From Bacteroidales bacterium (GTDB taxonomy: Bacteria; Bacteroidota; Bacteroidia; Bacteroidales; P3), in contig JAFUVR010000037.1 of NCBI GenBank assembly GCA_017477485.1, forward strand, positions 6,949 through 70,948: DNA of 64,000 nucleotides, in the 5' to 3' direction. Positions 2,876 to 39,549 of this stretch are shown piece by piece. The notes below the pieces were generated by a model that was not told the DNA's origin, ran no database searches, and saw only the letters and a program-made list of their open reading frames with translations. How positions within the stretch are numbered: the stretch's first letter is position 1; each line of letters opens with the position of its first letter. Made by a program: the position numbers and the translations under genes.

Positions 2876-2961
2876 CACAACGATTGCCGACAGCAGGAAA
2901 GCCTGACGGCGAGCCGCACAAATCAATATATCGAATTGACCCACTTAACATTGAGCAACGC

Positions 2962-26400: not shown

Positions 26401-27381
26401 TTACAACTTGTAAGGGACACCCTTGCGATGGATGGTGGTCTCATAGAGGTTGTCGATAGACTCGTGCTTGACGATGCGGTTGAGAGCCTCGGCAAAGAGC
26501 CAGTCGCAGGAGAGGACATGGATCTTGTCGGACTTGCGCCGCAGCGGGATGCTGTCGGTAACGACGAGTTCTTCGAGGGCAGAGGCCTCCACCTTCTCGA
26601 TGGCCTGGCCCGAGAGCACAGGATGGGTAATCATGGCACGCACACTCTTGGCACCATTGTCCATGATGATGCCGGCGGCCTTGCAGATGGTAGAGCCCGT
26701 GTCGATAATGTCGTCAAGGAGGATGACATGCTTGCCCTTGACATCGCCAATGAGGCGCATCTCGCCGATTTCGTTGGGCTTGTTGCGATGCTTATAGCAC
26801 ATCACAAAGCTGTTGCCGAGGGTCTTGGCATACTGGCCGGCACGGCGGCTGCCGCCGAGGTCGGGCGAGGCAAAGAGCACATCATCATAGTCGAACGTCT
26901 CACGGATATAAGGCATGAACAGCGAGCTGCCGAAGAGGTGATCGACGGGCAGGTCGAAATAGCCCTGGATCTGGTCGGCATGCAGGTCCATGGTCACCAC
27001 ACGGTTGACGCCGGCAGCACTCAGCATGTTGGCAATCATCTTGGAGGCAATGGGCACATGGGGCTTATCTTTGCGGTCCTGACGGGCAAAGCCGTAGTAG
27101 GGGATGACCGCCACCACCTTGTCGGCAGAGGCACGACGGGCAGCATCCACCATCATGAGGAGCTCGAAGAGGTTGTCCGTTGGCGGGATGGTGGACTGGA
27201 TGATAAAGACAATGCCGCCGCGAATGCTCTCCTCGAAAGAGGGCTGAAACTCGCCATCGGCATACTGAAAGACTTCCGATTTGCCCAGGGAGATGCCGTA
27301 TTTCTCGGCAATGCGGCTGGCGAGGTCGCGCGTGGCACGGCCTGCGAAAATGAATACTTTATCGTTGTAGTGATCGCTCAT
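26401..27381 (-). CDS. prs: Ribose-phosphate pyrophosphokinase
   Basis: DLHADQIQGYF and the PRPP-binding motif VILLDDIIDTGSTI. ATG 27381 is preferred over TTG 27405 because the -7 box lies at 27403-27410. Confidence 0.9.
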   Translation of the reverse strand: MSDHYNDKVFIFAGRATRDLASRIAEKYGISLGKSEVFQYADGEFQPSFEESIRGGIVFIIQSTIPPTDNLFELLMMVDAARRASADKVVAVIPYYGFARQDRKDKPHVPIASKMIANMLSAAGVNRVVTMDLHADQIQGYFDLPVDHLFGSSLFMPYIRETFDYDDVLFASPDLGGSRRAGQYAKTLGNSFVMCYKHRNKPNEIGEMRLIGDVKGKHVILLDDIIDTGSTICKAAGIIMDNGAKSVRAMITHPVLSGQAIEKVEASALEELVVTDSIPLRRKSDKIHVLSCDWLFAEALNRIVKHESIDNLYETTIHRKGVPYKL

Positions 27382-27402
27382 GGCGTTAGATTTTTGAGTG
27401 TG

Positions 27403-27410
27403 CAAAGGTA
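27403..27410 (-). promoter_or_regulatory. -7 promoter box TACCTTTG (minus strand) for prs
   Basis: + strand CAAAGGTA, 22 nt upstream of ATG 27381. Confidence 0.45.
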
Positions 27411-27462
27411 GTACTATTTTTGCGACCTACAAAAAATATTTTGTCGGTTGTGAAAAAGTGCG

Positions 27463-27470
27463 TATTTTTG
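27463..27470 (+). promoter_or_regulatory. -7 promoter box TATTTTTG for the tRNA-Leu/tRNA-Val pair
   Basis: 27 nt upstream of the tRNA-Leu 5' end. Confidence 0.45.
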
Positions 27471-27496
27471 CACCCGATTTCAAGCGGAGAAGTCAT

Positions 27497-27580
27497 GCCC
27501 AGGTGGCGGAATAGGTAGACGCGTCGGTCTCAAAAACCGATGGGGTAACACCCGTGCCGGTTCGACCCCGGCCCCGGGTA
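27497..27580 (+). tRNA. tRNA-Leu (anticodon CAA), class II with long variable arm
   Basis: Anticodon stem TCGGT/ACCGA, loop CTCAAAA, variable arm TGGGGTAACACCCGT, T-arm GCCGG-TTCGACC-CCGGC. The acceptor GCCCAGG/CCCGGGT carries G1.U72 and an A5.C68 mismatch. Confidence 0.8.
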
Positions 27581-27593
27581 CACAAGACGGATA

Positions 27594-27668
27594 GGGAGTT
27601 TAGCTCAGCTGGTTCAGAGCGCTTGCCTTACAAGCAAGAGGTCATTGGTTCGAGCCCAATAACTCCCA
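27594..27668 (+). tRNA. tRNA-Val (anticodon TAC)
   Basis: Acceptor GGGAGTT/AACTCCC, anticodon stem CTTGC/GCAAG, loop CTTACAA, T-loop GGTTCGAGCCC. Confidence 0.9.
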
Positions 27669-27678
27669 CAAAACGAAG

Positions 27679-27715
27679 CAACAGCCATAAGGAAACGAAG
27701 GGCTGTTGTTTTTTT
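27679..27715 (+). terminator. Intrinsic terminator after tRNA-Val
   Basis: CAACAGCC...GGCTGTTG followed by T7. Confidence 0.7.
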
Positions 27716-27809
27716 AGGTACCCGCGGAATATGCCGCTACCCACGCACCTGCAGGTATTGGTCGTTGCCGCAGCAAACGTCCCCGCCTGTTCAATCAACA
27801 ACGAACGCC

Positions 27810-28199
27810 ATGAAGACTATCCAGAAGAGCCTGACCATCATACTTCTCGCCATCGCCGTGGCCATGGCAGGCTGTAACCGCGACAGCGTGCCGGCGGGGA
27901 TAATGACCGAGGAGGAGATGATAGACTTCCTTTCCGAAGCCTACCTCATCGAGGGCTTCTACGCCATCGAGACGGGCTACAACTATGACAAACTGACCGA
28001 CGATATCGTCAATTCCTATCGAGAACTGCTCGACCGCAAAGGGCTGTCGCAGCAGAAGTTCGAGAAAAGCATCGAATACTATATGCGACACAGCGACCGC
28101 TACGAGCGTGTGCACCAAGCCGTTGTGGACCGTCTCGACGCCATGCAGCCCGACAAAGCCCGAGGCAGCGCATCGCCACAAAACCGGCTGCCGCGATAG
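27810..28199 (+). CDS. DUF4296-like lipoprotein
   Basis: Start at ATG 27810, MKTIQKSLTIILLAIAVAMAGC lipobox, then MTEEEMIDFLSEAYLIEG. Family name is from memory. Confidence 0.6.
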   Translation: MKTIQKSLTIILLAIAVAMAGCNRDSVPAGIMTEEEMIDFLSEAYLIEGFYAIETGYNYDKLTDDIVNSYRELLDRKGLSQQKFEKSIEYYMRHSDRYERVHQAVVDRLDAMQPDKARGSASPQNRLPR

Positions 28200-28460
28200 C
28201 ACCCGCCCACCACAACCCTCAGACAACGAGGGACTCACCTCCGTGATACCTCCGTCAGACCGTCTCGATAGCGCAAACGTCATCGCAACAGCGTGCTACC
28301 ATCCAATCCATCACCACCCGCCCCGACATAACATCACTGAGGGCTTCCGCCCTGACCGACAGAGATAGTATCGTCCGTTTTTTACATTTTTTTAGCATCA
28401 CCACAGATACTTATTTTCCACAAAAATAGTTTTTACATCAGAAAGGAGACAACCCACACC

Positions 28461-29615
28461 ATGAAAAAACTATTTTGCACATTATGCAACGTGGCCTTTG
28501 CCGCCATGTCGCTGACCATTCTGACCAGCTGCAATCAGGCCGACGGCATCCGACCGGATGTAGCCACACAGGTACCACACACCACGCCTGTCACCCACAC
28601 CGCACAGCTGAAATATGTCGATTTCTCGCAAGTGGCCGAGCAAACCATCGACGCCGTGGTGCACATCAAGACCGAGATGACCAAGCTGACCCCCCTCTAT
28701 GAGACCTTCTTCGGCATGATCATAGACCGCGGTGTGCAACGCAAGACTTATAACGCCTTTGGCTCAGGTGTCATCATCTCGCCCGACGGCTACATCGTCA
28801 CCAACAACCACGTGGTGCAAGACGCCGAACGCATCAGTGTTACGCTTAACGACAAGCGCACCCTGCCCGCCCAACTGATAGGCCACGACCCCGCCACCGA
28901 CCTGGCCCTCATCAAGATAGAGACCGACGGACTGCAATGGATTCCGTTCGGCAACAGCGACAGCGTGCGCATCGGCGAACCCGTGCTGGCCATAGGCAAC
29001 CCCTTCAACCTTACCTCCACCGTTACCGCCGGCATCATCAGCGCCAAAGCCCGCAACGTGGGCATCATCGAAAACACACGAGGCCTCGAAAGTCCCATCG
29101 AATCGTTTTTGCAGACCGATGCCGCCGTCAACTCCGGCAATTCCGGCGGCGCCCTCGTCAATGGCGATGCCCAGCTGATAGGCATCATCACCGCCATAGC
29201 GTCAGGCAACGGTTATTACACCGGCTATTCCTTCGCCATCCCCTCCGACCTGGCTCAGAAAGTGGTGGGCGACCTTAAGCAATACGGCTACACCCAACGC
29301 GCCTATCTCGGAGTCAACGTGACCGAAATGACCGAAGAACTGGCCGCCCAGCTCGGCACCCGCGAGCTCAAGGGAATGGTCATCACCCGCATCATCGCCG
29401 ACTGCGCCGCCGACCGTGCAGGCCTGCACGTGGGCGACATCCTCATGGAGGTGGCCGGCGTGGACATCCATTCCTATGCCGAGATGATGGAGGTGTTGGG
29501 CAAGTGCTCGCCAGGCGACAAGGTGGAAGTCGTATACCAACGCAACGGCCAGCCCAAAACCACCACGGTAACCCTGCTCAACGCCATGGGCAACACGCAG
29601 ATCCTACGCCGTTAA
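28461..29615 (+). CDS. HtrA/DegP-like serine protease with one PDZ domain
   Basis: Catalytic triad contexts TNNHVV, DLALIKI and GNSGGALVN, with a C-terminal PDZ-like region. Confidence 0.85.
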   Translation: MKKLFCTLCNVAFAAMSLTILTSCNQADGIRPDVATQVPHTTPVTHTAQLKYVDFSQVAEQTIDAVVHIKTEMTKLTPLYETFFGMIIDRGVQRKTYNAFGSGVIISPDGYIVTNNHVVQDAERISVTLNDKRTLPAQLIGHDPATDLALIKIETDGLQWIPFGNSDSVRIGEPVLAIGNPFNLTSTVTAGIISAKARNVGIIENTRGLESPIESFLQTDAAVNSGNSGGALVNGDAQLIGIITAIASGNGYYTGYSFAIPSDLAQKVVGDLKQYGYTQRAYLGVNVTEMTEELAAQLGTRELKGMVITRIIADCAADRAGLHVGDILMEVAGVDIHSYAEMMEVLGKCSPGDKVEVVYQRNGQPKTTTVTLLNAMGNTQILRR

Positions 29616-29661
29616 GGACATTGCCACATCCATCCAGGCCACAAAACAGCAGACATCCTCC

Positions 29662-30210
29662 GTGAAAAGCAATAACGCAATGAAACTCTACAAAAAGATC
29701 TACATCAAACTCCTCGTCTACCTCGGCAAAGCCGTGGACATCAGTTCCAGCGGCCACTACCCTGCCGACGTGCTGTCGAACATCAAGGGCAACAAATTCA
29801 CCATCGACGGCATTGAATGCGGCAGCATGGAAGGTTTTCTGCAAGCACTGAAACAAGACGATGCCGAGACCCAGCGCCACCTCTGTGCTCTCAAAGGACG
29901 CGAGGCACGCCGACGCGCCACCCGCGACTGGCAGCGCGACCAACGCCTCTGGTGGCAGGGACAGCCAATAGGCCGCGAGAGCGACGAATACCGTGCCCTC
30001 CTGTGCCGTGCCTACGACACACTCTTCGAGCAGAACGTAGCCTTCCGCATGGCACTCCTCTCCACCAAAGGCAAGCGGCTCTTCTACAGCCACGGACGCC
30101 ACAACCCCAAGAAAACCATCCTCACCGAACAAGAGTTTTGCCAGATACTGACCGACCTGCGTGCCAAGAACGCTGACCGCAAAACCTTCGGCACAGGCTC
30201 GCGCCACTGA
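29662..30210 (+). CDS. Hypothetical protein, possibly a divergent NADAR (YbiA/DUF1768-like) domain
   Basis: By-eye pattern match to the NADAR layout: LSNI..KFTIDGIECGSMEGFLQALKQDD...KGREARRR ... LFEQNVAFRMALLSTKGKRLFYSH ... EQEFCQILTDLR. The alternative start is ATG 29680. Its last 84 nt are duplicated at 31491-31577. Confidence 0.6.
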   Translation: MKSNNAMKLYKKIYIKLLVYLGKAVDISSSGHYPADVLSNIKGNKFTIDGIECGSMEGFLQALKQDDAETQRHLCALKGREARRRATRDWQRDQRLWWQGQPIGRESDEYRALLCRAYDTLFEQNVAFRMALLSTKGKRLFYSHGRHNPKKTILTEQEFCQILTDLRAKNADRKTFGTGSRH

Positions 30211-30213
30211 GGC
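30127..30213 (+). repeat. Direct repeat copy A (functional 3' end of the NADAR-like gene)
   Basis: 29-nt perfect core GAACAAGAGTTTTGCCAGATACTGACCGA and the shared end GCGCGCCACTGAGGC (copy A reads TCGCGCCACTGAGGC). 69/87 identical to 31491-31577 by hand alignment. Confidence 0.85.
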
Positions 30214-30368
30214 CTTTTTACCCAAGATACCCCTAACACGAAGTTGTGCCCCCTCCCCTCGTCCACATGATGAGAGGGAGGGGCTTGGCATTTGGGGCTA
30301 AAAACTGCATTCTATCTTACACAGCACCACCTTAATTCCCCTACCCTACCACCATAAAAGATTTTTTG

Positions 30369-30376
30369 TATCTTTG
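30369..30376 (+). promoter_or_regulatory. -7 promoter box TATCTTTG inside the insertion
   Basis: 121 nt upstream of ATG 30497. Confidence 0.4.
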
Positions 30377-30496
30377 CAACGATAAACAAACAAAACGCCG
30401 CCCCTATAACAGCAGAGAATTGCATCACACAAAAAAACTAATTCCACATCATAAAACAAGTCAATCAGCCCATAGCGCGAGCGATTATAGTCGGAA

Positions 30497-30715
30497 ATGG
30501 ATAAGAAAACATTGGAATTTGTAACCTACTGCATCGTTAAACTATCAGCGATGCTGAATTTGCCACAACGAGAAGTCTATAAGCGGCTTAAAGACTCGGG
30601 GATATTGTATGGCTATATCATTCCATCGTATGATGTGTTACATACGTTCAGTTCGAGGTACCTAATGGAAGACCTCACCGATTATATGAGAGAGAAAGGA
30701 GTGCTCTCGTCATGA
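30497..30715 (+). CDS. DUF3791 domain protein (copy 1)
   Basis: 72 aa, LEFVTYCIVKLSAMLNLPQREVYKRLKDSGILYGYIIPSYDVLHTFSSRYLMEDL, the typical DUF3791 pattern (from memory). 4-nt overlap with the next gene. Confidence 0.7.
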   Translation: MDKKTLEFVTYCIVKLSAMLNLPQREVYKRLKDSGILYGYIIPSYDVLHTFSSRYLMEDLTDYMREKGVLSS

Positions 30716-31182
30716 GGCTATATCATTCATCAAATATTATCGTTGAATGCCCTGACACGAAGCATTCGCGCCACTACCTTGATTTTGGTCGTGGTTTCTA
30801 CCTTACCTCGTTGCATGAACAGGCGGAGCGGTATGGGCAACGATTCAAGCGCAGAGGGCAACAGGCTTGGCTGAATACGTATGAGTTTGCTTGTGATGAC
30901 ACTCTTTGGAACATTAAACGTTTTGACAGTTATGACAAGCAATGGCTCGACTTTGTGGCACAATGTCGTGACGGAAAGGATGTAGGCGATTATGATCTGG
31001 TAATTGGCGGTATTGCCAACGACAGAGTAATTATCACGTTGGACCGGTATTTCACAAGAGAAATCACGCAGGAAGATGCCCTTGGAATGCTGCGATTTGA
31101 GAAACCGAACATTCAATACTGTATTCGGTCAGAAAGTATGTTGCGGGAATGTCTCACTTATATCGACAGTGAACAATTATGA
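30712..31182 (+). CDS. DUF3990 domain protein (ADP-ribosyltransferase-fold superfamily, candidate toxin)
   Basis: MRLYHSSNIIVECPD...LDFGRGFYLTSLHEQAERYG... matches the DUF3990 N-terminal signature (LYHGS...FG.GFYlT). Its membership of the Pfam ADP-ribosyl clan is from memory. Confidence 0.7.
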   Translation: MRLYHSSNIIVECPDTKHSRHYLDFGRGFYLTSLHEQAERYGQRFKRRGQQAWLNTYEFACDDTLWNIKRFDSYDKQWLDFVAQCRDGKDVGDYDLVIGGIANDRVIITLDRYFTREITQEDALGMLRFEKPNIQYCIRSESMLRECLTYIDSEQL

Positions 31183-31418
31183 GCGAAGAAGGCAGACAGG
31201 CTATGAGAAGCGCACAATGTGCACGAATCATTATGTGTATCAGCGAGATGTTTGGCGTCTCGCTCAATGACGCAACAGACATCTATTACAATTCCGACAC
31301 GGCCAATATGATAGAAGACGGCGTTGCCGACCTCCATTGTCGTAGTGACAAATATCTGGCAGAGGAAGTATGGAGAGAATATAAAGAATCCATCCCCACA
31401 GGTAAGGCATGTCATTAG
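31179..31418 (+). CDS. DUF3791 domain protein (copy 2)
   Basis: 79 aa, ARIIMCISEMFGVSLNDATDIYYNSDTANMIEDGVADLHCRSDKYLAEEV. 4-nt overlap with the DUF3990 gene. Confidence 0.65.
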   Translation: MSEEGRQAMRSAQCARIIMCISEMFGVSLNDATDIYYNSDTANMIEDGVADLHCRSDKYLAEEVWREYKESIPTGKACH

Positions 31419-31490
31419 TCGGCATAGGACCACCAACGTGTGAGCCATTTTTTTGGAGCAAACTCTAAAACCAAAGAGACAGAAGCGAGC

Positions 31491-31577
31491 GAACAAGAGT
31501 TTTGCCAGATACTGACCGAGTAGCGTGAGAGATATGCCGACCGCAAAATCATGGTCAATGGGGCGCGCCACTGAGGC
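31491..31577 (+). repeat. Direct repeat copy B (decayed, displaced 3' end; in-frame TAG)
   Basis: Reads ..EQEFCQILTE*RERYADRKIMVNGARH* in the frame homologous to copy A, and is followed by the hairpin 31596-31635. Confidence 0.85.
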
Positions 31578-31595
31578 AAGCATCCGTACTATTAC

Positions 31596-31635
31596 ACAAC
31601 GAGGGAGACCCAATCAGTTAGGTCTCCTTCGTTGT
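31596..31635. terminator. 15-bp hairpin between convergent units (island/old gene end vs tatC)
   Basis: ACAACGAGGGAGACC-caatcagtta-GGTCTCCTTCGTTGT (one G.U). There is no clean U-run on either strand. Confidence 0.45.
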
Positions 31636-31681
31636 TTGGTCAAAGATCCTTCACATTGACTCAGCATGGAGGGTAGTGCCG

Positions 31682-32452
31682 CTAATCGGTCTTGGCCGTC
31701 CACCGGACGACGCGGATGCTGACTTCATAAAGAAGATAGAGTGGCATCGAGACGAGTATGAGTGTCATCAGGTCGGGAGGGGTGATGACAGCTGCCACAA
31801 ACATGATGACGATAAAGGCGTGGCGACGGTAGCGTGATAGTAGCGCGGACGTAATCAATCCCATCTTTGCCAGAAAGAAAGCAATGATGGGCAGCTGGAA
31901 CACGAGGCCCATCACCAGCGTCAGCGATGTGAACGTGCGAATGTACGAATCAATTGTAATCGTACTATGTATTTGGTCGGAAACACTGTAGTTGCCCAAA
32001 AAGCGAAACGAGATGGGAAACAAAACAAAATAGGTCATCAGCACGCCCACGATGAAGAGTGCGTAGATAACAACGGCCACCGCCACGGAGTGGCGCCGCT
32101 CGTTATCGTACAAGGCTGGAGACACGAAGCGAAACAATTCAAAAAGGATGTAGGGCGATGCACCGAGCAGCCCAAGATGAAAAGCCGTGGTGATGTGACG
32201 CATAAACTGGCTCGACAGGTCGGTAGCGATGAGCTGTATGTGGTACTCGGCGAAATGGAAATCCACGCCCAGACCTTGCAGCAAGTGCTCTATCCAACGG
32301 TAGGTAACGAAATCCCACTGTGAGGGTGCCAACAGTAGACGCCACGTGGCATCCTTGAAGCAAAACACCACGACGGTTATAGCAAGCGTGACTGCGAGAA
32401 TGCGCAACAGCATTTGGCGAAGCACCTCCAAGTGTTCGCCAAATGTCATCAT
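31682..32452 (-). CDS. tatC: Twin-arginine translocase subunit TatC
   Basis: MMTFGEHLEVLRQMLLRILAVTLAI.. with six TM segments. Start set at ATG 32452, 16 nt after the tatA stop; the longer ORF overlaps tatA. Confidence 0.85.
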   Translation of the reverse strand: MMTFGEHLEVLRQMLLRILAVTLAITVVVFCFKDATWRLLLAPSQWDFVTYRWIEHLLQGLGVDFHFAEYHIQLIATDLSSQFMRHITTAFHLGLLGASPYILFELFRFVSPALYDNERRHSVAVAVVIYALFIVGVLMTYFVLFPISFRFLGNYSVSDQIHSTITIDSYIRTFTSLTLVMGLVFQLPIIAFFLAKMGLITSALLSRYRRHAFIVIMFVAAVITPPDLMTLILVSMPLYLLYEVSIRVVRWTAKTD

Positions 32453-32468
32453 CTGCTCCGTGGGCTGG

Positions 32469-32702
32469 CTATTGCCGCTCCCCGTCCTCGCCCGATGGCG
32501 GCTGTTGCGCAGGTGGTACTTCCTTTTCATCTTGCTGGTCGCCTGAATCTTCGGCCATGGGGTCGCTCATGCCTTTCTTGAAACTCTGCACGCCCTGTCC
32601 CAAACCTTTCATCATCTCGGGCAGTTTCTTGCCACCGAACAGTAGCAGGGCTATGCCGCTGATGAGCAGCAACTCGGTAGTACCGATAAATAGTAGTTTC
32701 AT
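32469..32702 (-). CDS. tatA: Twin-arginine translocase subunit TatA/E
   Basis: [45 protein letters not shown]: TM helix, hinge FGG and amphipathic helix. Confidence 0.85.
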
Positions 32703-32713
32703 AGCGGTTTATG

Positions 32714-33037
32714 TTATTCAGAAAGGAATATCTCGCAAGTCTCGAAGTTTATCTCCCAGTGGCCGTTCTCGGTACCTTGCCATTGATACTGGGCAGCCAT
32801 GCGGTCCCACCAGTTTTGAAATTTAGTGCCTGTCTCGCCCATATCCTTCACCAGTTTCTGATAGAGGACGTCGTTATCGGGAGTGAGAATTTTGGCCAAC
32901 TCGCTGAGGCCGTTGCGGCGTTCGAAGAGACTCTGTATCTCGTCGCGTTCCTCGGCAGTTACATATCCGATTTTTGTCTTCATGGTTCGTGTTTTTTCAA
33001 TGATATTTTGTTTGACATCTGTTATGAAATCAACCAT
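32714..33037 (-). CDS. Small accessory protein of the CXXX-repeat peptide modification system
   Basis: 107-aa ORF (internal start MKTKIGYVTAEERDEIQ at 32983 is equally possible). Predicted helical. It sits 11 nt upstream of tatA and 51 nt downstream of the SPASM gene. The family name is from memory of NCBI/TIGRFAM naming. Confidence 0.6.
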   Translation of the reverse strand: MVDFITDVKQNIIEKTRTMKTKIGYVTAEERDEIQSLFERRNGLSELAKILTPDNDVLYQKLVKDMGETGTKFQNWWDRMAAQYQWQGTENGHWEINFETCEIFLSE

Positions 33038-33088
33038 GCTTGATTGACAACCTAACCCTGGTCAATTGTTTTCTTGGTCAGGCGAAAG

Positions 33089-34036
33089 TTACCATTCTTT
33101 ACGCACGTCGAAGGGGTCGCTGTAGTCTATTTCCTTTATCTCCACTTCGGACATGAAGGTTGCCTTCTCCCTTACGTTCGCCAGCAACCGTCGCGTGGTT
33201 TCGCGCTCGGTGTGTGCCATGACACATTGCTCATGGCTTGGTGTATTCACCTCGTAAGTCATCTTGCGGTTCAGCCACACGCAGCGACGGCAATGCCACA
33301 CATCGCAGTGGCGGCACAGCGGGGCATGGTCCAGCCGCAACAACTGAGGGTTGCGGATGTCAAGTCCCTCCGCCACGGATCCCACGTTATCATCGGCATC
33401 AGTGTAGTAGAACGCCGGACAGAGGTAGAACCGCCCATTAGGTGCCAATGTGATGTTCTCTACGCCAGCGTTGCAGTGGTTAGGTTTATCCAGCATCATG
33501 CGGTCGGTTAGCAGGTTCAACTGCGGTGCGCACCCTGTAAGATACTCCGCCTTCACGACCTCCGCCAGCGTGTCCAGCACCTCTCTGTACTTCGGCAGCT
33601 CGGCATCCGTAATAGTCTCCACGTCGGTAATCACCACGTTGAGCCGTGCCACCTGCTGCGTCAACTGAGCCACAGCATCGACCGACTTGAAGAGCCCCGC
33701 CTTCGTTATCCGCAGCACGTACGGCACATTTCGGAGAACGGGCGACTCGCCCGAGAGTCCGTCCATGACCACCACATCGGGTTCCTGCACAGGTCTGTCG
33801 CCCGTGCCCCACGGCACAATGTCGTGGTGGTCAATGGTGTCTATTACGTCCAGATACTCCTGCGGCAGTGCGTAGTTGGGATAGACCATCTGCACCATCA
33901 AGTTCTCCATCATGGCATAGCGAATGCTCATGCGCAAGTCGTCGAGACCTATCAGTCGGCGTTCCTTGTGGGGATTGTCGCAATGGCAGTAGCTCACCGA
34001 TGTGTCGTCCAACAGTATTACAAGATATTGCATCAT
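33089..34036 (-). CDS. SPASM-domain protein lacking the canonical radical SAM CxxxCxxC motif (CXXX-repeat peptide maturase-like)
   Basis: Start chosen at MMQYLVILLDDTSVSYCHC (34036, 4 nt after the upstream stop); alternative ATG at 34081. The N-terminus has only CHC. The C-terminal Cys cluster is HCNAG..LCPAF..LCRHCDVWHCRRCVW..EQC. Confidence 0.7.
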   Translation of the reverse strand: MMQYLVILLDDTSVSYCHCDNPHKERRLIGLDDLRMSIRYAMMENLMVQMVYPNYALPQEYLDVIDTIDHHDIVPWGTGDRPVQEPDVVVMDGLSGESPVLRNVPYVLRITKAGLFKSVDAVAQLTQQVARLNVVITDVETITDAELPKYREVLDTLAEVVKAEYLTGCAPQLNLLTDRMMLDKPNHCNAGVENITLAPNGRFYLCPAFYYTDADDNVGSVAEGLDIRNPQLLRLDHAPLCRHCDVWHCRRCVWLNRKMTYEVNTPSHEQCVMAHTERETTRRLLANVREKATFMSEVEIKEIDYSDPFDVRKEW

Positions 34037-34040
34037 GACT

Positions 34041-35288
34041 TTAGCAGATTTCGGGGTTAGACTTACGGTGATTTTTCTCATACTCCTCACGGTGCTCCTC
34101 CAGTTCCAACTTACGGTAGAGCTTGTTCCAGTAGTAGTTGTTGGCCCGCACACGGGCTTTGTGCATCAGGCAAATGGCTGTCGAACGTTCATAGATAGTG
34201 TTGGTCCGTGCGGCATCGTAGTTCTCGCCCTGACACCATGCACAGCCACTCGCCACCTCGCAATCGAGGCACTTTTGTGGGCTCTGCGTCACACGATCCA
34301 GCGTCAGGAACGGCCGCAACAGGTTCTGGTTGATACCATCCTTGATGTTGCCGATAACGAGTGCTCTCTTCTCTCGCAGCGAATACTGCGCAAAGCGTGT
34401 GCAGGGGTACAATTTGCCCGCGGCGTCCACGCTCAGCATCCGTCCCGCGCCGCACCAGTTCTGGTTATCGCGCTCTGGATCCAGCGGTTTGCCTATCTGC
34501 TCGCTGAAGAACGAGCAGGCATAGTCCTCATAATAGCCACCGTCAATGATGGCATCGGCCAGTGTCATCAGCTGTTCCTCGAAGCGACTATCATCGCCCT
34601 CCTGCCACACATCCTCGAACACCACGTTGATGTTCACCTGATGGATGCCCAGCGAATAGAGGTGTAGCACACTTTCCGTGATATACGGAATGTCGGTACT
34701 GCTGATGGTTACCTTCGTCCCCGCATCAGGAAACTGCTTTAGCCACAGCGGGATGTTACGCACCACGTCGTTGTACGACCCTTTGTCCGACGACAGCGTG
34801 ATGCCGTTGGGGTCAGTGGATGGCTGCTTGTACACACGGTTCATATCGTGCTTCCGCTCCGTGCCGTCGATGGTGATACCTATCGACAGGTGGTCGCGGT
34901 TCTTCTCGATAAAACGCTGCACCTCGGGCGTGTGATAGTTGATGCCGTTGGTCGAGAACGAGAAACGGTACGAGTTGAACCAGTGATGGTTCAGTTCGAA
35001 CATACGCAACTTCAGGTAGTCGCATATGCGGTCAATCAGTGCAATCTCCAGAAATGGCTCACCGCCGATGAAGTCCCAAATCACACTTTCTTCCGGAAAT
35101 TCGCTCTCATGCGATAAAACATAGTCAATAAACTCCTTGGCCGTTTCCCACGACATCCGCTCTTTCATGTTCTTCCCCACCAAGTAGCAATACTTACAGG
35201 CCAGCTGACAGTCCTTCGTGACGATAAATGTAATATTCTTCGCCATGCCAGACTGCCATAGCAATGTTTCTTTTTTTATAGTATTCAT
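34041..35288 (-). CDS. Radical SAM/SPASM peptide maturase (anaerobic sulfatase-maturase-like), CXXX-repeat target type
   Basis: Radical SAM cluster motif ITFIVTKDCQLACKYCY. SPASM cysteines are WCGAG..YPCTRF..CLDCEVASGCAWCQG..AIC. Confidence 0.85.
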   Translation of the reverse strand: MNTIKKETLLWQSGMAKNITFIVTKDCQLACKYCYLVGKNMKERMSWETAKEFIDYVLSHESEFPEESVIWDFIGGEPFLEIALIDRICDYLKLRMFELNHHWFNSYRFSFSTNGINYHTPEVQRFIEKNRDHLSIGITIDGTERKHDMNRVYKQPSTDPNGITLSSDKGSYNDVVRNIPLWLKQFPDAGTKVTISSTDIPYITESVLHLYSLGIHQVNINVVFEDVWQEGDDSRFEEQLMTLADAIIDGGYYEDYACSFFSEQIGKPLDPERDNQNWCGAGRMLSVDAAGKLYPCTRFAQYSLREKRALVIGNIKDGINQNLLRPFLTLDRVTQSPQKCLDCEVASGCAWCQGENYDAARTNTIYERSTAICLMHKARVRANNYYWNKLYRKLELEEHREEYEKNHRKSNPEIC

Positions 35289-35351
35289 TTCTTTATAGGC
35301 AAAACACCACCAAAATATAAAATGTGTCGATTTTTACCATATATCCTTTGA

Positions 35352-36074
35352 CTAATTAATTTTTATTACCTGACTTGCTGGTGGGAAAACAAAAGACATC
35401 CCATAACAACTCCCTGTACAAAAACCAGCACAATTCCCGATACAGGAACTTGTACACAACGTTTTGCAACTATATTCACATGATTCCTTACAACTATGTT
35501 TACATGATTCCTTACAGGAATAATAGCATGACTCCTTACAGGTCTCAGAACAGGAACCACTACATCCTGATTTACAATCATGAGAACATGACTGCGCGCA
35601 ATTTGTAGTACATGTCCCACTGCACGTACTTTTACACCCACCAGAACAAGACGATTTACATCCAGCCTTACAGCTATCTTTGCACCCACCAGAGCAATCG
35701 CGACAACTTGAAGAAGTACTATGACTATTAGAGCTAGAACTATTGGAAGACGACCCCGCACAACTATAGCCACATGAGCCACTACATTGGTAATAGCACG
35801 AGCCTTGACATGTCCCTGTGCATCCTTGACACAGATTTGAACAGGAACCGCTACAACTACTTTTACATCCACCATAACATAACTGATAACATGTTTCAGT
35901 ACATGCAGTAGCACATGAATACGGGCATCCTGTAGGATGCAATTTCCCATCTGCTGCCGATGACATATCTACAACTGCTACCATTCCCAAAAGAGGAAGT
36001 AACCCATTGGCTGCCACTTTAAAGAAGGTCCTTCTGCTTTGTAATTTGTCTTCTTTTTTCATATCGTTTTTCAT
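35352..36074 (-). CDS. Tat-signal CXXX-repeat polycysteine protein (putative radical SAM substrate)
   Basis: Start at ATG 36074 (MKNDMKKEDKLQ) or 36062. Twin-arginine motif SRRTFFK plus an h-region and SSA-A. It has 41 Cys in two blocks (15 + 26), with 37 CX3C and 2 CX2C spacings, separated by the Ser/Asn linker AGSSSNSSSSNSHSTSSS. Confidence 0.8.
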   Translation of the reverse strand: MKNDMKKEDKLQSRRTFFKVAANGLLPLLGMVAVVDMSSAADGKLHPTGCPYSCATACTETCYQLCYGGCKSSCSGSCSNLCQGCTGTCQGSCYYQCSGSCGYSCAGSSSNSSSSNSHSTSSSCRDCSGGCKDSCKAGCKSSCSGGCKSTCSGTCTTNCAQSCSHDCKSGCSGSCSETCKESCYYSCKESCKHSCKESCEYSCKTLCTSSCIGNCAGFCTGSCYGMSFVFPPASQVIKIN

Positions 36075-36087
36075 AACTACAGGGTAT

Positions 36088-36334
36088 AAAAAAACCGCGG
36101 GCTTCTGTTGAGGCTCGTGGTTCTGGACTACCATCTATCAAACAAGAAAGCTCGCGATTGCTCACGAGCGTTCCGCTTCTTGTTGATAGATAAACAAATT
36201 TGTCCAGAATTTGAGCCTATCAAGAAAGCAAAAACGCTTTTTATCTATTTCCCTTCGATTCTAAATCTTCTCTATATTATTCGTATTCAGTTATTTTTTA
36301 TATACTACATTCACGGATTTGCACCACAAATATA
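36088..36334 (-). promoter_or_regulatory. Promoter (-7 box TATATTTG 36327-36334, -33 TTTG 36354-36357) plus ~245-nt structured leader, copy 1
   Basis: Nested helices at 36121-28/36202-09, 36135-48/36177-89 and 36150-69. Hairpin plus U7 at 36088-36120. The core is repeated at 63600-63730 (see findings). Confidence 0.6.
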
Positions 36335-36755
36335 CAAAAATTTTGTTTTGATACAAAGACCGTTAAATTAACACTTGTTTTTTTCAAGAAACATCCCTCG
36401 TCCGCCGTTATCGGGGCCTCCCCTGCGGCTTAGACCTTCTTTACGCATTTTCTTAATGTTTATCATCAGTCTTTATGGAAAAATGCAATGCCGCAGCGAT
36501 TTCAGCGTTGGATACTTCCGAATTGTTCGTAACCAGTCCCACATTTTTCACCCCACTTTTGGGGTAAATCATCTATTCTGCAAACATTATACGGAACGTT
36601 GAATCTGAGTAAATTGCCTCTACAGTCAAAACGTACCCTACCATACGGATGCAATGTGCGAAGCATTCCTAAATCCATCAGTTAAGGATAATAGCACAAC
36701 AGAAGGACAAAGGCGGAAAACGCAGATTAGAATTGCCGTTTTGGTGTGGAAATCG

Positions 36756-36763
36756 TATCTTTG
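36756..36763 (+). promoter_or_regulatory. -7 promoter box TATCTTTG
   Basis: 17 nt upstream of ATG 36780. Confidence 0.45.
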
Positions 36764-36779
36764 CGGCCTGTTTTCTGCG

Positions 36780-38279
36780 ATGCTGACAGTGACACACATA
36801 GTAGGTATCTTGCTGACCGTTGGGCTACTGCTGGTTATCGGCGTAATGTCGGGCCGGAAGGTGAAAGACGCGCGGGGTTTTGCCATAGGAGGCAAGGCTG
36901 GCAGCTGGATGGTGTGCGGCATCATTATGGGCACACTGGTAGGCGGACAATCGACCATAGGGACGTCGCAGATGGCCTACTGTTATGGCCTTTCGGCATG
37001 GCTCTTCTCGGCGGGAGTGGCTCTGGGCAGTCTGATACTGGGGTTGGTCTATACCGTGCCACTGCGGCGAAGCGGCTGTATGACCCTGGCAGAAATCATA
37101 GCCAAAGAATACGGCCACAAGGCCGAGACCATCGGGTCGTTGCTCTGCATGACCGGCATGTTTATCAGCATTGTGTCGCAAGTGATAGCCTCAACGGCAA
37201 TGATGACCTCGATGTTTGAGATGGAGCACACGGTGGCCGCGGTGTTGTCGGCGGCACTGATAGCTGCTTTCGTTTTCTTCGGCGGCATACGCAGTGCGGG
37301 GCTGGGAGGCATACTGAAGCTGGTGCTGCTCTACGTGGCATCGCTGACAGCGGCGGTGGTGGTGTGGCGGCTTTCGGGCAGCATAGGCAACGTTTACGAC
37401 AGCCTACACGAGGTCATGGAGACCCCCACCATTGCTGACCTCAATGGATTGTCCACATCGGAGTCCATAGACCATCGCTACGCCAACCCCGTAGGACGAG
37501 GTGTGGCGAAGGATATAGGGTCGGCCATCTCGCTGATTCTTGGCGTGCTGGCCACACAGACCTACGCCCAAGGCATTTGGGCCGCCCGCAGCGATCGCCA
37601 TGCGCGACGTGGCGCCGTGTGGTCGGCGCTGTTGGTGCCCGTCATAGGGGCGGCCTGCACACTGATTGGACTCTACATGCGTGGCCACTATATCACCCAC
37701 GAGGAACAGGCGGCACTGCTGGCCGCCGGCGAGCAAGTGCCCGAAGGAGTGAGGGTGATAGCCCACACTGCCGAGGTGTTTCCCCGATTCATCTTGGACA
37801 ACTGTCCAGCATGGATAGGGGGCATCGTGCTGGGCACCCTCTTCGTCACCATCCTCGGAGGCGGCAGCGGACTGACGCTGGGCACGGCGACAATACTGGT
37901 GCGCGACGTGTTCAGCAATATTCCTCGCCGCGACGGGGGACACTACGGTGAGTCGAAGAGCCTCTACCGTTTCAGCATCGTCTTCTTAGTCGGTATGGCG
38001 TTACTGGTGTCGCTGCTGAACAACCGAACACTCATCAACGAACTTGGCTTTCTCTCGCTGGGGCTACGTGCCACGGCGCTGCTGGTACCGTTGAGTGCGG
38101 CGCTCTTCATGCCCGGACGATTCAAACGCTACGAGGTCATCATGTCCATGGTCGTGGGCTGTGTCACCATGATTGCAGCCTCATCGCTCAGCCTACCGGG
38201 CGACGCCATCTTCTGGGGCATGGGCTCCGAACTGCTCATCATGGCAGCAGCCAGTGTCTACAGGAAGCACTCACACTGA
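36780..38279 (+). CDS. Sodium:solute symporter (SSS) family transporter
   Basis: Start at ATG 36780 (MLTVTHIVGILLTVGLLLVIG). About 13 TM segments, with GGKAGSWMVCGIIMGTLVGGQSTIGTSQ. Confidence 0.75.
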   Translation: MLTVTHIVGILLTVGLLLVIGVMSGRKVKDARGFAIGGKAGSWMVCGIIMGTLVGGQSTIGTSQMAYCYGLSAWLFSAGVALGSLILGLVYTVPLRRSGCMTLAEIIAKEYGHKAETIGSLLCMTGMFISIVSQVIASTAMMTSMFEMEHTVAAVLSAALIAAFVFFGGIRSAGLGGILKLVLLYVASLTAAVVVWRLSGSIGNVYDSLHEVMETPTIADLNGLSTSESIDHRYANPVGRGVAKDIGSAISLILGVLATQTYAQGIWAARSDRHARRGAVWSALLVPVIGAACTLIGLYMRGHYITHEEQAALLAAGEQVPEGVRVIAHTAEVFPRFILDNCPAWIGGIVLGTLFVTILGGGSGLTLGTATILVRDVFSNIPRRDGGHYGESKSLYRFSIVFLVGMALLVSLLNNRTLINELGFLSLGLRATALLVPLSAALFMPGRFKRYEVIMSMVVGCVTMIAASSLSLPGDAIFWGMGSELLIMAAASVYRKHSH

Positions 38280-38445
38280 CCGATACCCAAACTGAGCACC
38301 CTGTATTTCTAAGATTACAACTATTGCCACGGCAACGGGGTCCGATATCGACCTCGCATCCAAAGAATCGGACAAAAGAAAAGCCGACAGGGTGTCGCAT
38401 ATCGTAAAGCAACACCCTGTCGGAATAAGGAGGCAATGGAGCAGA

Positions 38446-39549
38446 TTATTTCAGGTTGAGACGGAAGAAATCCTCCAACTTATCGAATGGGATGACGCCT
38501 GCTTTGTCGTCGTAGAGGTCCACGTGTGAGGCACCGGGGATAATCAACAGTTCCTTGTTGCCTTTGGTCATACTTCTGCCTTCGGGGGCGATGCCCGTCA
38601 TGCGCTCGAACGCATATTCGCTGAAATAGCGGCTGTGGGCTTTCTCGCCATGGATGAGGAGTACGGGGTTCTCAATCTCGTGGGCCCAGCAGAGCAGTGG
38701 CTGATTGTAGAACGACTGGCATCCGATGACATTCCATCCGTCGGTAGAGTTGCCGCTGCGCTCATGATAGCCGCGGGCGGTGGCGTAGTAATCGGTATAA
38801 TCCTTCACGAACTGCGGGGTCTCGTCCGTCAGCATTTCTGGTTTCAGCACTCCTCCACCGCGTTTGTAAGTGCCCGTGCGATAGTCCTCGATGCGTTGGG
38901 CTGCCATCATGCGACGTTTCTCCATGCGCTGTGCCGGGGTGTCCTCGCTCTTGAAATAGCCCTCCACGCTCACCTTGCTCATGTCGTACATGGTGGAAGC
39001 CACAGTAGCCTTGATGCGGGGGTCGAGGGCTGCAGCATTGACGGCCATGCCGCCGAAGCCACAGATACCGATAATGCCAATGCGTTCGGGGTCCACATTG
39101 TCCTGCACCGAGAGGAAGTCGACGGCGGCAAGGAAGTCCTCGGTGTTGATGTCGGGCGAAGCCATGCGACGGGGAGTGCCGCCACTCTCGCCAGTAAAAC
39201 TGGGATCAAAGGCAAGCGCAAGAAAGCCGCGCTCGGCCATGTGTTGTGCATAGAGGCCACTGGACTGCTCTTTTACAGCGCCAAAAGGGCCACTCACAGC
39301 AATGGCTGCCAGTTTGCCCGTAGCCCCCTTAGGGGTATAGAGGTCGGCGGCCAGCTCGATGCCATAACGGTTGTGGAAGGTCACCTTGCGGTGCTCCACC
39401 TTGTCGCTCTTGGGGAAAGTCTTGTCCCACTCCTGGGTAAGGTTGAGAGATGTCATATCGGTTTCGTTTGTAGGGTTATTGGACTCATTGCTTGTGCATG
39501 CTGCCAACATGAGGATGGACAACATTGCGGAAAGGAAGATTGATTTCAT
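38446..39549 (-). CDS. Alpha/beta hydrolase lipoprotein
   Basis: Lipobox LMLAAC. The nucleophile elbow candidate is GICGFGG, so the nucleophile position holds Cys/Gly rather than the classic GxSxG. This was not examined further. Overall length and layout match the alpha/beta-hydrolase family. Confidence 0.6.
   Translation of the reverse strand: MKSIFLSAMLSILMLAACTSNESNNPTNETDMTSLNLTQEWDKTFPKSDKVEHRKVTFHNRYGIELAADLYTPKGATGKLAAIAVSGPFGAVKEQSSGLYAQHMAERGFLALAFDPSFTGESGGTPRRMASPDINTEDFLAAVDFLSVQDNVDPERIGIIGICGFGGMAVNAAALDPRIKATVASTMYDMSKVSVEGYFKSEDTPAQRMEKRRMMAAQRIEDYRTGTYKRGGGVLKPEMLTDETPQFVKDYTDYYATARGYHERSGNSTDGWNVIGCQSFYNQPLLCWAHEIENPVLLIHGEKAHSRYFSEYAFERMTGIAPEGRSMTKGNKELLIIPGASHVDLYDDKAGVIPFDKLEDFFRLNLK

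Follow-up and report, generated by a model that had tools for sequence, protein, structure and literature searches.

Cysteine thioether links are made in several characterized systems. Freyrasin is a ranthipeptide with six Cys-to-Asp C-beta thioethers, CteB/ScfB form a thioether to a Thr C-gamma, and QhpC, the gamma subunit of quinohemoprotein amine dehydrogenase, receives its Cys thioether links in the cytoplasm before non-Sec export to the periplasm; these are three links to Asp/Glu in an enzyme subunit, which leaves by a dedicated ABC-type transporter and not by Tat. Nearest to the locus described here is the CXXX repeat peptide modification system (TIGR04114/TIGR04117, TIGR04115, TIGR04119, and TIGR04116), which is already catalogued in TIGRFAMs/NCBIfam and Pfam. 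The system is common, yet in the searchable literature it is only bioinformatically defined: our searches there returned no paper on its chemistry or function, the term TIGR04115 led only to an unrelated microbiome paper, and the reviews and the Bacteroidales RiPP-mining paper that we consulted do not mention it.

We analyzed a member of this system in a stretch of 64,000 nucleotides of Bacteroidales DNA (the window), in which all of its defining parts are present. An earlier note on this DNA had implied that the architecture of the protein is novel, whereas we find that it defines the catalogued family (TIGR04114/TIGR04117/TIGR04115/TIGR04119/TIGR04116, PF27846), of which the window protein is a further member. 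What is new here is a Ser/Ala/Asn/Thr cap four residues after the last cysteine of a block, the CX2C start of linker-following blocks, the linkage to TatA and TatC, phage versions of the protein that have no Tat leader, and the low third-position GC of a gene that a public gene call overlooks. As the best overall explanation, we modestly favor a repeat protein that is cross-linked in the cytoplasm and then exported by Tat.

The precursor gene and its operon

We are nearly certain that the ORF is a real gene and that it encodes a Tat-targeted CXXX-repeat protein, the substrate-type component that stands first in a six-gene minus-strand operon (precursor, TIGR04115, TIGR04119, TIGR04116, TatA, TatC). 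Its parts and the genes that follow it are:

35352..36074, minus strand: precursor gene, CXXX-repeat radical SAM target protein with Tat signal (ORF and translation, TIGR04117)
35952..36074, minus strand: signal/leader, residues 1-41 (from sequence)
36018-36038, minus strand: twin-arginine motif SRRTFFK, residues 13-19 (from sequence)
35760..35927, minus strand: repeat block 1, C50 to C105, with 15 Cys, 13 CX3C, and one register shift, CQGC
35706..35759, minus strand: Ser/Asn-rich linker AGSSSNSSSSNSHSTSSS between the blocks
35406..35705, minus strand: repeat block 2, C124 to C223, with 26 Cys, opening with the conserved CRDCSGGCKDSCKAGC
35467-35516: 24-nt tandem duplication inside block 2 (Tandem Repeats Finder)
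35355..35405, minus strand: C-terminal tail YGMSFVFPPASQVIKIN
34041..35288, minus strand: radical SAM/SPASM maturase, 415 aa (TIGR04115, 618.7 bits, cutoff 350)
33089..34036, minus strand: CXXX repeat peptide maturase, 315 aa (TIGR04119, 240 bits, cutoff 150)
32714..32983, minus strand: CXXX repeat peptide modification system protein, 89 aa (TIGR04116, 98 bits, cutoff 50)
32469..32702, minus strand: TatA/E family translocase subunit, 77 aa (TIGR01411, 59.8 bits, cutoff 53.9)
31682..32530, minus strand: TatC translocase subunit, longest ORF (TIGR00945, 157.6 bits, cutoff 132.7)

The precursor runs from an ATG at 36074 to a stop codon at 35352-35354 (240 aa plus stop), a start that agrees with the homologues, in which the leader begins about 10-16 residues ahead of the RR. 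TIGR04117 matches it over the leader and the first repeats (52.5 bits, cutoff 50), and TIGR04114, an 18-residue repeat model, scores 16.6 bits, under its cutoff of 20. With the TIGR04115 and TIGR04119 matches of the next two genes, this bears out the suggestion that the protein serves the radical SAM enzymes encoded next to it as a precursor-type substrate. The proposed Tat-type signal also holds: SRRTFFK is followed by a hydrophobic stretch, VAANGLLPLLGMVAVV, and then by SSAA, and TatA and TatC lie in the same operon. Signal peptidase I likely cleaves around SSA/AD.

Counting confirmed 41 cysteines at a four-residue period in blocks of 15 and 26, with 37 CX3C spacings, one linker step, and, as had been claimed, only two CX2C (CQGC at C82-C85 and CRDC at C124-C127). 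Cysteine makes up 24% of the 174-residue core (S44, C41, G20, T14, K11, Y9), and in 100,000 shuffles of this core the number of CX3C never exceeded 14. The linker comprises 18 residues, a 19-residue Cys-to-Cys step, and its fourth residue, S109, lies at +4 from the end of block 1; Ser227 in the C-terminal tail lies likewise at +4 from the last Cys of the protein. The internal duplications needed correction at one point. Specifically, there are two copies of SCKESC, at residues 186 and 194, and not three, and only CKESC is found thrice, whereas the DNA repeat CATGATTCCTTACA, placed by the earlier note near 35478 and 35503 on the plus strand, is present there at 35479 and 35503. Tandem Repeats Finder describes it as a period of 24 nt with 2.1 copies and 92% match, that is, an eight-residue duplication. 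In searches with the precursor, PDB sequences gave no match at E<=1, and a local copy of Pfam that lacks PF27846 gave no family at E<=0.01 for the precursor and no hit for its relatives.

The TIGR04115 enzyme starts 63 nt downstream of the precursor on the same strand, carries CX3CX2C at C27/C31/C34, has no N-terminal RRE-type domain, and is identical to NCBI MBR1517097.1, which is already named for the CXXX-repeat system. The TIGR04119 maturase, whose start we took from the public gene call, has a SPASM-type seven-Cys C-terminal domain and no CX3CX2C radical SAM motif; its invariant cysteines are C18, 189, 207, 242, 245, 250, 253, and 272, and it matched no PDB sequence. The TIGR04116 protein shares 100% identity with an NCBI protein bearing the same system name, matches 4,704 clusters (90% identity) at E<=1e-5, and has a mean column identity of 72%. 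In its AlphaFold2 model (pLDDT 85.6) a long helical hairpin is preceded by one strand and followed by two, and a fold search with this model found no significant solved structure, only helical hairpins of a generic kind (best E 0.77). The protein is therefore not recognizable as a RiPP recognition element, nor does it have the fold of a known Tat chaperone. For TatC, the true start is probably at the MMTFGEHL methionines near 32452. An Rfam scan of 31000-37000 for a riboswitch gave chance-level matches only.

Relatives and the rules of the repeat

The system is widespread among Bacteroidales of the gut and rumen, with the TIGR04115 enzyme present in at least 550 species genomes; cultivable carriers of the cassette include Xylanibacter rarus and Hoylesella loescheii. 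We found 65 homologues of the precursor, most of them with PF27846 (tSAM_targ_Cxxx_rpt), and, in 74 of 80 related Bacteroidales loci, 137 same-strand CX3C ORFs. These precursors are all encoded on the strand of the enzyme and almost always immediately precede its gene, the gene order of the cassette is conserved, and TatA and TatC follow directly downstream in 53 of the 60 loci with enough downstream sequence. The cysteine periodicity is kept in all 137 ORFs and the Tat motif in 128 of them. Sizes range from 80 to 416 aa and from 10 to 56 Cys, and many loci carry two to six tandem, fast-diverging paralogues. With family medians of 113 aa and 16 Cys, the window precursor is indeed large for a RiPP precursor; among the 128 Tat-bearing relatives, 19 reach at least 200 aa and nine at least 41 Cys. 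The family leader consensus is ELQSRREFFKxAAKKALPILGAIAL...PMGC, and its conservation reaches well past the Tat consensus. Some relatives have a lipobox followed by K-D-D-type motifs, and others have globular domains flanked by CXXX blocks; for the domains inserted in the longer relatives, hints of OB-fold and Lcl_C were all that emerged, and these stayed below threshold. In two phage loci, a repeat protein that lacks the Tat leader is encoded with a TIGR04115 enzyme and with neither TIGR04119 nor TIGR04116, and these phage CXXX proteins adjoin a collagen-like tail fibre gene in the virion module.

The earlier note suggested aligning homologues to see whether variable repeat number goes with a conserved linker and a single conserved CX2C per block. 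Repeat number does vary widely, and the block-2 opening is conserved: CX2C opens 51 of 58 linker-following blocks, and two-block proteins share the opening CxDCSGGCKDSCxAGC. The linker is conserved in composition only, as those of related two-block proteins are rich in S/G/N/P/Y and span 21-32 residues between flanking cysteines with no sequence conservation. One CX2C per block is not a family rule, since counts run from 0 to 8 and the block-1 CQGC is absent from block 1 of the three related two-block proteins examined (L008, L022, and L054). The tail of L008, CYGMSFIFPPPAQVIMNPNNLFG, is similar to that of the window precursor.

In addition, the period continues for one step beyond the cysteines. 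At +4 after the last Cys of a block we found S (54%), A (15%), N (11%), T (8%), and Gly (3%), so that S/A/N/T occupy this position in 88% of blocks, and Gly accounts for 45% of residues at +2. The residue at -4 before a block showed no pattern like this +4 cap. S/A/N/T take the i+4 position in 64% of the cases that follow a CX2C and in 43% of all others (Fisher p = 4e-7, although p-values here overstate the evidence because the sequences are mutually related), and CX4C units showed no i+4 enrichment (n = 26). In the window precursor, the i+4 position holds Cys 37 times, is taken by Ser where each of the two blocks ends, and never holds Asp. The +4 cap could equally be a packing or helix-capping rule.

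Proposed cross-linking and export, and the alternatives

After its own family, the next-best model for the TIGR04115 enzyme is PapB (NF047865, 178.4 bits, cutoff 340), followed by the SCIFF maturase (TIGR03974, 92.8 bits), QhpD (TIGR03906, 89.9 bits), and the anaerobic sulfatase maturase (TIGR03942, 52.9 bits). The characterized families that match it best are thus formers of Cys thioethers, and among solved structures it comes closest to the thioether synthase CteB (5wgg, E 6.6e-18). The alignment begins at CteB residue 94, and the window enzyme therefore lacks the N-terminal domain of CteB. In the C-terminal (SPASM) half it has eight invariant cysteines against seven in CteB; because of these eight, an open iron site for a substrate Cys is not to be assumed. 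The argument that a seven-Cys SPASM domain means an open iron site and hence a thioether synthase was dropped, the eighth cysteine, C258, being invariant.

The earlier note had suggested that the strict cysteine register would line up all thiols along one face of a helix or a regular solenoid. For the unmodified precursor, AlphaFold2 (26-sequence alignment) gave helices of low confidence and no confident fold (pLDDT 43, pTM 0.23), which argues for a need for modification; the repeat region would then have no stable fold of its own. Most likely, the radical SAM enzyme cross-links the precursor before folded export. Judging from homology scores far below the cutoffs of the characterized families, our best reading of the modification is multiple Cys-donor thioether cross-links, probably from i to i+4. 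In the reducing cytoplasm, the TIGR04115 enzyme would use Cys thiols as donors and form many in-register thioether (sulfur-to-carbon) links per block, and the partner of each Cys would be the residue at i+4, usually the next Cys and, at block ends, the Ser, Ala, Asn, or Thr cap. The CXXX repeats have no fixed acceptor residue like the Asp of PapA. The C-X3-D link of PapB/freyrasin has the same polarity and ring size as the links proposed here (PMC8326336).

A bolder and rather unlikely form of this proposal is that the enzyme bonds the Cys sulfur to the beta-carbon at i+4, with each internal Cys serving as both donor and acceptor. If this were true, the blocks would be unbroken series of fused thioether (dithioacetal-type) rings, a covalent 'zip' on the scale of a protein, for which we know of no counterpart. 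The result would be a rigid rod, resistant to proteases and redox conditions, that could leave the cytoplasm only via Tat, and such rods would be building modules of Bacteroidales envelope proteins and phage fibres.

The long conserved leader would double as Tat signal and as a handle for the modification machinery. Because the TIGR04115 enzyme itself lacks a recognition domain, we propose that TIGR04116 and/or TIGR04119 bind the leader, and they would probably retain the substrate until modification is finished; for TIGR04116, co-occurrence is what suggests this role. We also counted the Tat-less phage repeat proteins, with their missing TIGR04119 and TIGR04116, in favor of leader handling by the accessory proteins. 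Once cross-linked, the protein could presumably no longer be threaded through Sec and would therefore be exported folded by the co-encoded TatAC, after which signal peptidase I would remove the leader. The predicted product is a cross-linked periplasmic or envelope protein of about 200 residues with a structural or protective role, and not a small diffusible antibiotic. The relatives with a lipobox and K-D-D motifs or globular domains, and the tail-fibre neighborhood in phages, were counted for a structural role. Taken as a whole, we regard this mechanism (cross-linking, hold-back by the leader, Tat export, and a structural envelope product) as evenly balanced between right and wrong. It would be a clear RiPP-like pathway with a Tat signal as leader and a co-encoded Tat translocase as exporter, and it could bring to light a structural element new to the Bacteroidales envelope and to some Bacteroidales phages. 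The chemistry of the CXXX system, once worked out, could reveal a new multi-site protein cross-link, and the regularities of the period turn the question of modification into concrete, testable hypotheses.

An alternative that we consider improbable is a metallothionein- or polyferredoxin-type Tat protein that is loaded with metal or Fe-S in the cytoplasm, with the radical SAM proteins acting in cofactor assembly. Tat export is typical of cofactor-loaded proteins, and the high cysteine content of the core, the CX2C openings of linker-following blocks, and two accessory proteins that are themselves Fe-S proteins would all fit such a role. The sequence itself does not: as the earlier note had held, no model we ran identifies a metallothionein, a ferredoxin, or SCIFF, there is no other Pfam or PDB sequence match, and CX3C with Gly/Ser/Thr fillers corresponds to no cluster-binding motif that we know of. 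Moreover, the relatives of the enzyme are peptide-modifying maturases and not cluster assembly factors, the pair of enzyme and repeat protein also occurs in phage virion modules, and the S/A/N/T residues that prolong the period at block ends are hard to square with metal ligation.

We attach a similarly low probability to conversion of the cysteines in the style of anSME, in which abstraction of the C-beta hydrogen would lead to formylglycine, dehydroalanine, or another product and thereby to a reactive or hydrated polymer. The eight invariant cysteines of the SPASM half recall fully ligated anSME-type enzymes. A protein with 41 aldehydes would be without precedent to our knowledge. The similarity to TIGR03942 is weak, much weaker than that to thioether synthases, and the precursor has no sulfatase-type recognition motif. 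Ser stands in for Cys at block ends, and anSME takes both Cys and Ser as substrate (PMC8326336).

A secreted, bacteriocin-like antimicrobial or signaling RiPP, with diversity driven by competition, is likewise improbable to us. Radical SAM/SPASM clusters often yield bacteriocins, and the quickly diverging tandem paralogues at many loci and the recent internal duplication in the window precursor speak for it. Against this, the cassette lacks a leader protease, an ABC exporter, and an immunity gene, Tat reaches only the periplasm in a Gram-negative cell, the relatives are lipoproteins or have globular domains, precursors reach the upper end of the size range given above (416 aa), and the phage versions lie beside a tail-fibre gene in a virion module.

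The precursor gene is AT-richer than its neighbors, as had been noted (GC 0.41 against 0.46-0.56 in the five downstream operon genes), mostly at third codon positions (GC3 0.29 against 0.57-0.73 in the operon genes), and its Cys codons are TGT:TGC = 32:9 against 10:23 in the neighbors. In a public annotation of identical DNA the gene is passed over and wrong-strand ORFs are called in its place, probably because its third-position GC runs counter to that of the genome, and no start variant of the precursor was found in a collection of 15 billion proteins. Precursor genes are thus easily missed, and surveys of predicted proteins therefore under-count CXXX-repeat precursors. The 194-aa ORF at 35366..35950, described earlier as antisense, is actually in another frame of the same minus strand, and the true antisense (plus) strand over the precursor holds only a 77-aa and a 45-aa ORF. 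A non-expressed artefact, or an unmodified disulfide-rich or low-complexity structural repeat next to enzymes that have another substrate, could claim the missed gene call, the absence from protein collections, and the atypical codon usage in its favor, but is barely credible, since frame, Tat leader, and Cys period are kept in 137 ORFs on the enzyme's strand, the TIGR04117 cutoff is passed, none of the 100,000 shuffles reproduced the periodicity, and targeting to Tat and not Sec points to folding or modification ahead of export; the non-coding reading was dropped because same-strand CX3C ORFs next to the enzyme are kept across related loci.

Comparison with known systems

Within the catalogued CXXX family, the window precursor lies at the long end and belongs to the two-block subtype with a Ser/Asn linker; nothing essential differs. 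The closest characterized enzyme family is that of PapB, which makes freyrasin from PapA, and the NF047865 alignment is nearly end-to-end. In both systems the substrate is repetitive, the donor Cys lies, or in the window protein would lie, four residues before its partner, and several links are made, or would be made, per enzyme (PMC8326336 for freyrasin/PapB). The window enzyme differs in scoring under the 340-bit cutoff, and its substrate has Cys or an S/A/N/T cap at i+4 where PapA has Asp. Its protein has 41 Cys against six cross-links, its leader is a Tat signal, its locus encodes two extra system proteins, and its host is Gram-negative.

SCIFF with CteB/ScfB shares the combination of a radical SAM/SPASM enzyme and a Cys-rich substrate, although the window enzyme remains far under the cutoff of the SCIFF model (425 bits for TIGR03974). 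Unlike CteB, it has no N-terminal leader-recognition domain and has one more invariant cysteine in the SPASM half, and SCIFF precursors are about 45 aa long with six Cys and no Tat signal, compared with 240 aa and 41 Cys here. QhpC/QhpD follow the same logic as the window system, in that a protein rather than a short peptide is cross-linked, while the sequences are unrelated. CefA/CefB (NF038107) form another catalogued radical SAM/SPASM system, in which the cysteines of the targets recur at a strict period of five instead of four, and the window enzyme scores 45.9 bits with that model against a cutoff of 600. Finally, metallothioneins and the keratin-associated and antifreeze Cys-repeat proteins share the high Cys content and low-complexity repeats, whereas the window protein is distinguished from all of them by its strict CX3C period, its Tat leader, and its obligatory linkage to radical SAM genes.

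Precursor gene and operon

We found that the precursor is the first of six closely packed genes running in one direction:

36074-35352, minus strand: precursor (TIGR04117, 52.5 bits, cutoff 50)
35288-34041, minus strand: radical SAM/SPASM enzyme (TIGR04115, 618.7 bits, cutoff 350)
34036-33089, minus strand: SPASM-only protein without the CX3CX2C motif (TIGR04119, 240 bits, cutoff 150)
32983-32714, minus strand: 89-aa system protein (TIGR04116, 98 bits, cutoff 50)
32702-32469, minus strand: TatA (TIGR01411)
32530-31682, minus strand: TatC (TIGR00945)

We show that the precursor gene is real, conserved and Tat-tagged, and that it is tied to a radical SAM/SPASM enzyme, two accessory proteins and the Tat translocase. 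The precursor is another member of a known, orphan family, the CXXX-repeat system of TIGRFAMs/NCBIfam (in Pfam now PF27846), and its architecture is not new. The NCBI protein identical to the enzyme (MBR1517097.1) is named 'radical SAM peptide maturase, CXXX-repeat target family [Bacteroidales bacterium]', and the entry identical to the 89-aa protein is named 'CXXX repeat peptide modification system protein'. The window holds no second precursor besides the one at 36074-35352, and no Rfam elements were found within or around the operon. In its longest form the TatC ORF shares 62 nt with tatA, and the conserved TatC N-terminus MMTFGEHLEVLR suggests a true start near 32452.

Immediately 3' of tatC, on the plus strand (29662-31182), lie three small genes with matches to Phage_30_3 (PF08010), DUF3791 and DUF3990 in the public annotation of an identical contig; at none of the other loci that we inspected do they have a connection with the cassette. 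On the other side, the 580-bp divergent intergenic region common to the precursor and a sodium/solute symporter gene contains a GC-rich hairpin and, after it, a T-rich run (36150-36169, minus strand; GCTCGTGAGCAATCGCGAGC TTTCTTGTTT), some 75 nt before the start of the precursor. It may be fortuitous, as a scan returned 7 such sites against 4.6 expected by chance.

The precursor ORF (minus strand, ATG at 36074, stop at 35352-35354) encodes 240 residues that begin with MKNDMKKEDKLQSRRTFFKVAANGLLPLLGMVAVVDMSSAADGKLHPTG, after which the repeats start. The cysteine count made from the sequence alone was confirmed: there are 41 cysteines, of which residues 50-105 hold 15 and residues 124-223 hold 26, with 37 CX3C spacings, two CX2C (CQGC, 82-85; CRDC, 124-127) and a single long step across AGSSSNSSSSNSHSTSSS. 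Composition does not account for this period, since 100,000 shuffles of the core reached at most 14 CX3C spacings. The DNA repeat (35479 and 35503) is genuine; Tandem Repeats Finder describes it as 2.1 copies of a 24-nt unit with 92% match, an 8-residue duplication. Two details of the first reading were corrected: SCKESC occurs twice, not three times, and the 194-aa ORF at 35366..35950, taken for antisense, lies in a shifted frame on the precursor's own strand. The reported AT-richness holds and is chiefly a third-position effect, with a GC3 of 0.29 against 0.57-0.73 across the five downstream operon genes and a TGT:TGC usage of 32:9 against 10:23 in the neighbours. Mean GC3 over the 137 precursor ORFs of the 80 fetched loci is 0.35, and 80% fall below the GC of their own locus. 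Possible reasons include avoidance of GC-rich repeat structure or recombination, translation pacing, or repeat turnover.

Window 26714-38983 has a 100% identical counterpart in a public metagenome contig, where the precursor (2910-3632 there) lacks a gene call and three short opposite-strand ORFs were annotated instead. A collection of 15 billion proteins contains the same contig's enzyme and small protein but not the precursor in any of its start variants. CXXX-repeat precursors are thus probably under-counted in protein databases.

Family variation and rules of the repeat

Close relatives of the enzyme are encoded by at least 550 genomes (one genome per species). The best 80 of these, whose loci we fetched, are almost all labelled Bacteroidales or Bacteroidia and are mainly rumen and gut MAGs; Xylanibacter rarus and Hoylesella loescheii are named carriers. 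The cassette order precursor(s)-enzyme-TIGR04119-TIGR04116 is conserved, and TatA and TatC follow directly in 53 of the 60 loci with sufficient downstream sequence. GCA_029975165.1 has the same four components in a different order, with TatAC not adjacent. Counting ORFs with at least eight CX3C spacings, we found 137 precursors in 74 of the 80 loci, every one on the enzyme's strand, with up to six tandem paralogues per locus. The proposal that the precursor rides on a Tat signal was right; TatA and TatC are in the operon, and 128 of the 137 related ORFs have a Tat motif. The family leader, ELQSRREFFKxAAKKALPILGAIAL...PMGC, is conserved far beyond the needs of a Tat signal. Related precursors are 80-416 aa long (median 113) and have 10-56 cysteines (median 16); 19 of 128 reach at least 200 aa and 9 of 128 at least 41 cysteines, so the window protein is long, not exceptional.

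In some relatives the signal peptidase I site is replaced by a lipobox with K-D-D-type residues after it. The precursors concerned (P0024, P0027, P0030, P0034, P0053, P0054 and those of loci L007, L014 and L029) are longer, with the lipobox straight after the Tat signal and K-D-D or K-D-E thereafter, which resembles the Bacteroidota surface-lipoprotein export signal. Some longer relatives have globular domains between or flanked by CXXX blocks, which gave only sub-threshold OB-fold and Lcl_C hints.

The family repeat consensus is C-[S/K/T]-G-[S/G/T]. The earlier idea, put forward for testing, that repeat number varies while one CX2C per block and the linker are conserved held in part: repeat number does vary, but the number of CX2C units in a protein ranges from 0 to 8. 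A two-block subtype unites the window protein with the precursors of loci L008, L022 and L054 and proteins P0001 and P0004. In the three loci, block 1 has 9-14 cysteines and no internal CX2C, and the linkers (21-32 residues between flanking cysteines, rich in S/G/N/P/Y) show no sequence conservation. The opening of block 2 is nearly invariant (C-x-D-C-S-G-G-C-K-D-S-C-x-A-G-C), and 51 of 58 blocks after a linker start with CX2C, against 20 of 128 first blocks.

Four residues after a block's last cysteine (+4) stands S in 54%, A in 15%, N in 11%, T in 8% and Gly in 3%, whereas Gly makes up 45% at +2 of that same unit; the window protein follows this rule at both block ends (S109, S227). Nothing comparable was found at -4 before a block. 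Simple decay of a terminal repeat does not explain the rule because Ala, Asn and Thr lie two mutations from Cys.

Inferred chemistry, leader handling and role

Among families of known chemistry other than its own, the enzyme best matches PapB (178 bits), the SCIFF maturase (92.8) and QhpD (89.9), thioether synthases with Cys as sulfur donor; anaerobic sulfatase maturase scores 52.9 bits. All matches to characterised families fall well below those families' cutoffs. The closest solved structure is CteB, a thioether synthase. AlphaFold2 predicts no fold for the unmodified precursor (pLDDT 43), which fits a substrate that gains structure via modification.

The directional +4 rule agrees in polarity and ring size with the C-X3-D units of freyrasin (PMC8326336). 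Taken with the scarcity of glycine, the sole residue that has no beta-carbon, it points to links that run from Cys i to the i+4 side chain. A weaker sign in the same direction is the i+4 residue after CX2C, which is S/A/N/T in 64% versus 43% otherwise (p = 4e-7, with sequences that are not independent); CX4C units gave no i+4 signal (n = 26). That the links join cysteine side chains as thioethers in a continuous ladder seems improbable to us. The SPASM half of the enzyme has eight invariant cysteines, not seven, and an open cluster site for a substrate thiol therefore cannot be assumed. Further invariant cysteines beyond the CX3CX2C motif and the SPASM set are C89 and C258, and the final residue, C415, is Cys in 96% of 80 homologues.

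Two phage loci, L084 7001-9798 (metagenome phage contig) and L088 4496-7278 (human faecal phage, GenBank MT835573.1), combine a CX3C-repeat protein with a TIGR04115-type enzyme. The enzymes share only 39% identity; that of L084 scores 386 bits (cutoff 350), and that of L088 was matched by tblastn alone. The phage repeat protein has an N-terminal domain of about 110 aa and no Tat leader, and the L084 pair is flanked by a gene for a collagen-like tail fibre on one side and by the lysis genes on the other. TIGR04119 and TIGR04116 are absent within about 6 kb of both.

These absences, an enzyme that lacks CteB's N-terminal domain, and the extraordinarily high conservation of TIGR04116, whose confident model is an uninformative helical hairpin, lead us to propose TIGR04116 and TIGR04119 as leader handlers. 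They might present the leader to the enzyme or keep it from TatC until modification is done, like the chaperones of cofactor-containing Tat substrates. Tat, not Sec, would be expected to export a covalently cross-linked polypeptide. Lipoprotein variants, domain-flanking variants and the phage context suggest a structural or protective envelope role.

Relation to known systems

The CXXX-repeat system is recognisable at once to a specialist, yet it is very widespread and chemically unsolved; we found no paper on its chemistry, product or phenotype in a search that covered only a minority of the subscription journals. What our analysis adds is a set of concrete, testable rules. The tests run denied the precursor membership among SCIFF peptides, metallothioneins and ferredoxins, from which the earlier note had set it apart. 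Overall, the mode of working inferred for the window system is most like that of PapB/freyrasin, and its overall logic is similar to that of QhpD/QhpC; it stands outside both families because their cutoffs are not reached and the Asp acceptor is absent.
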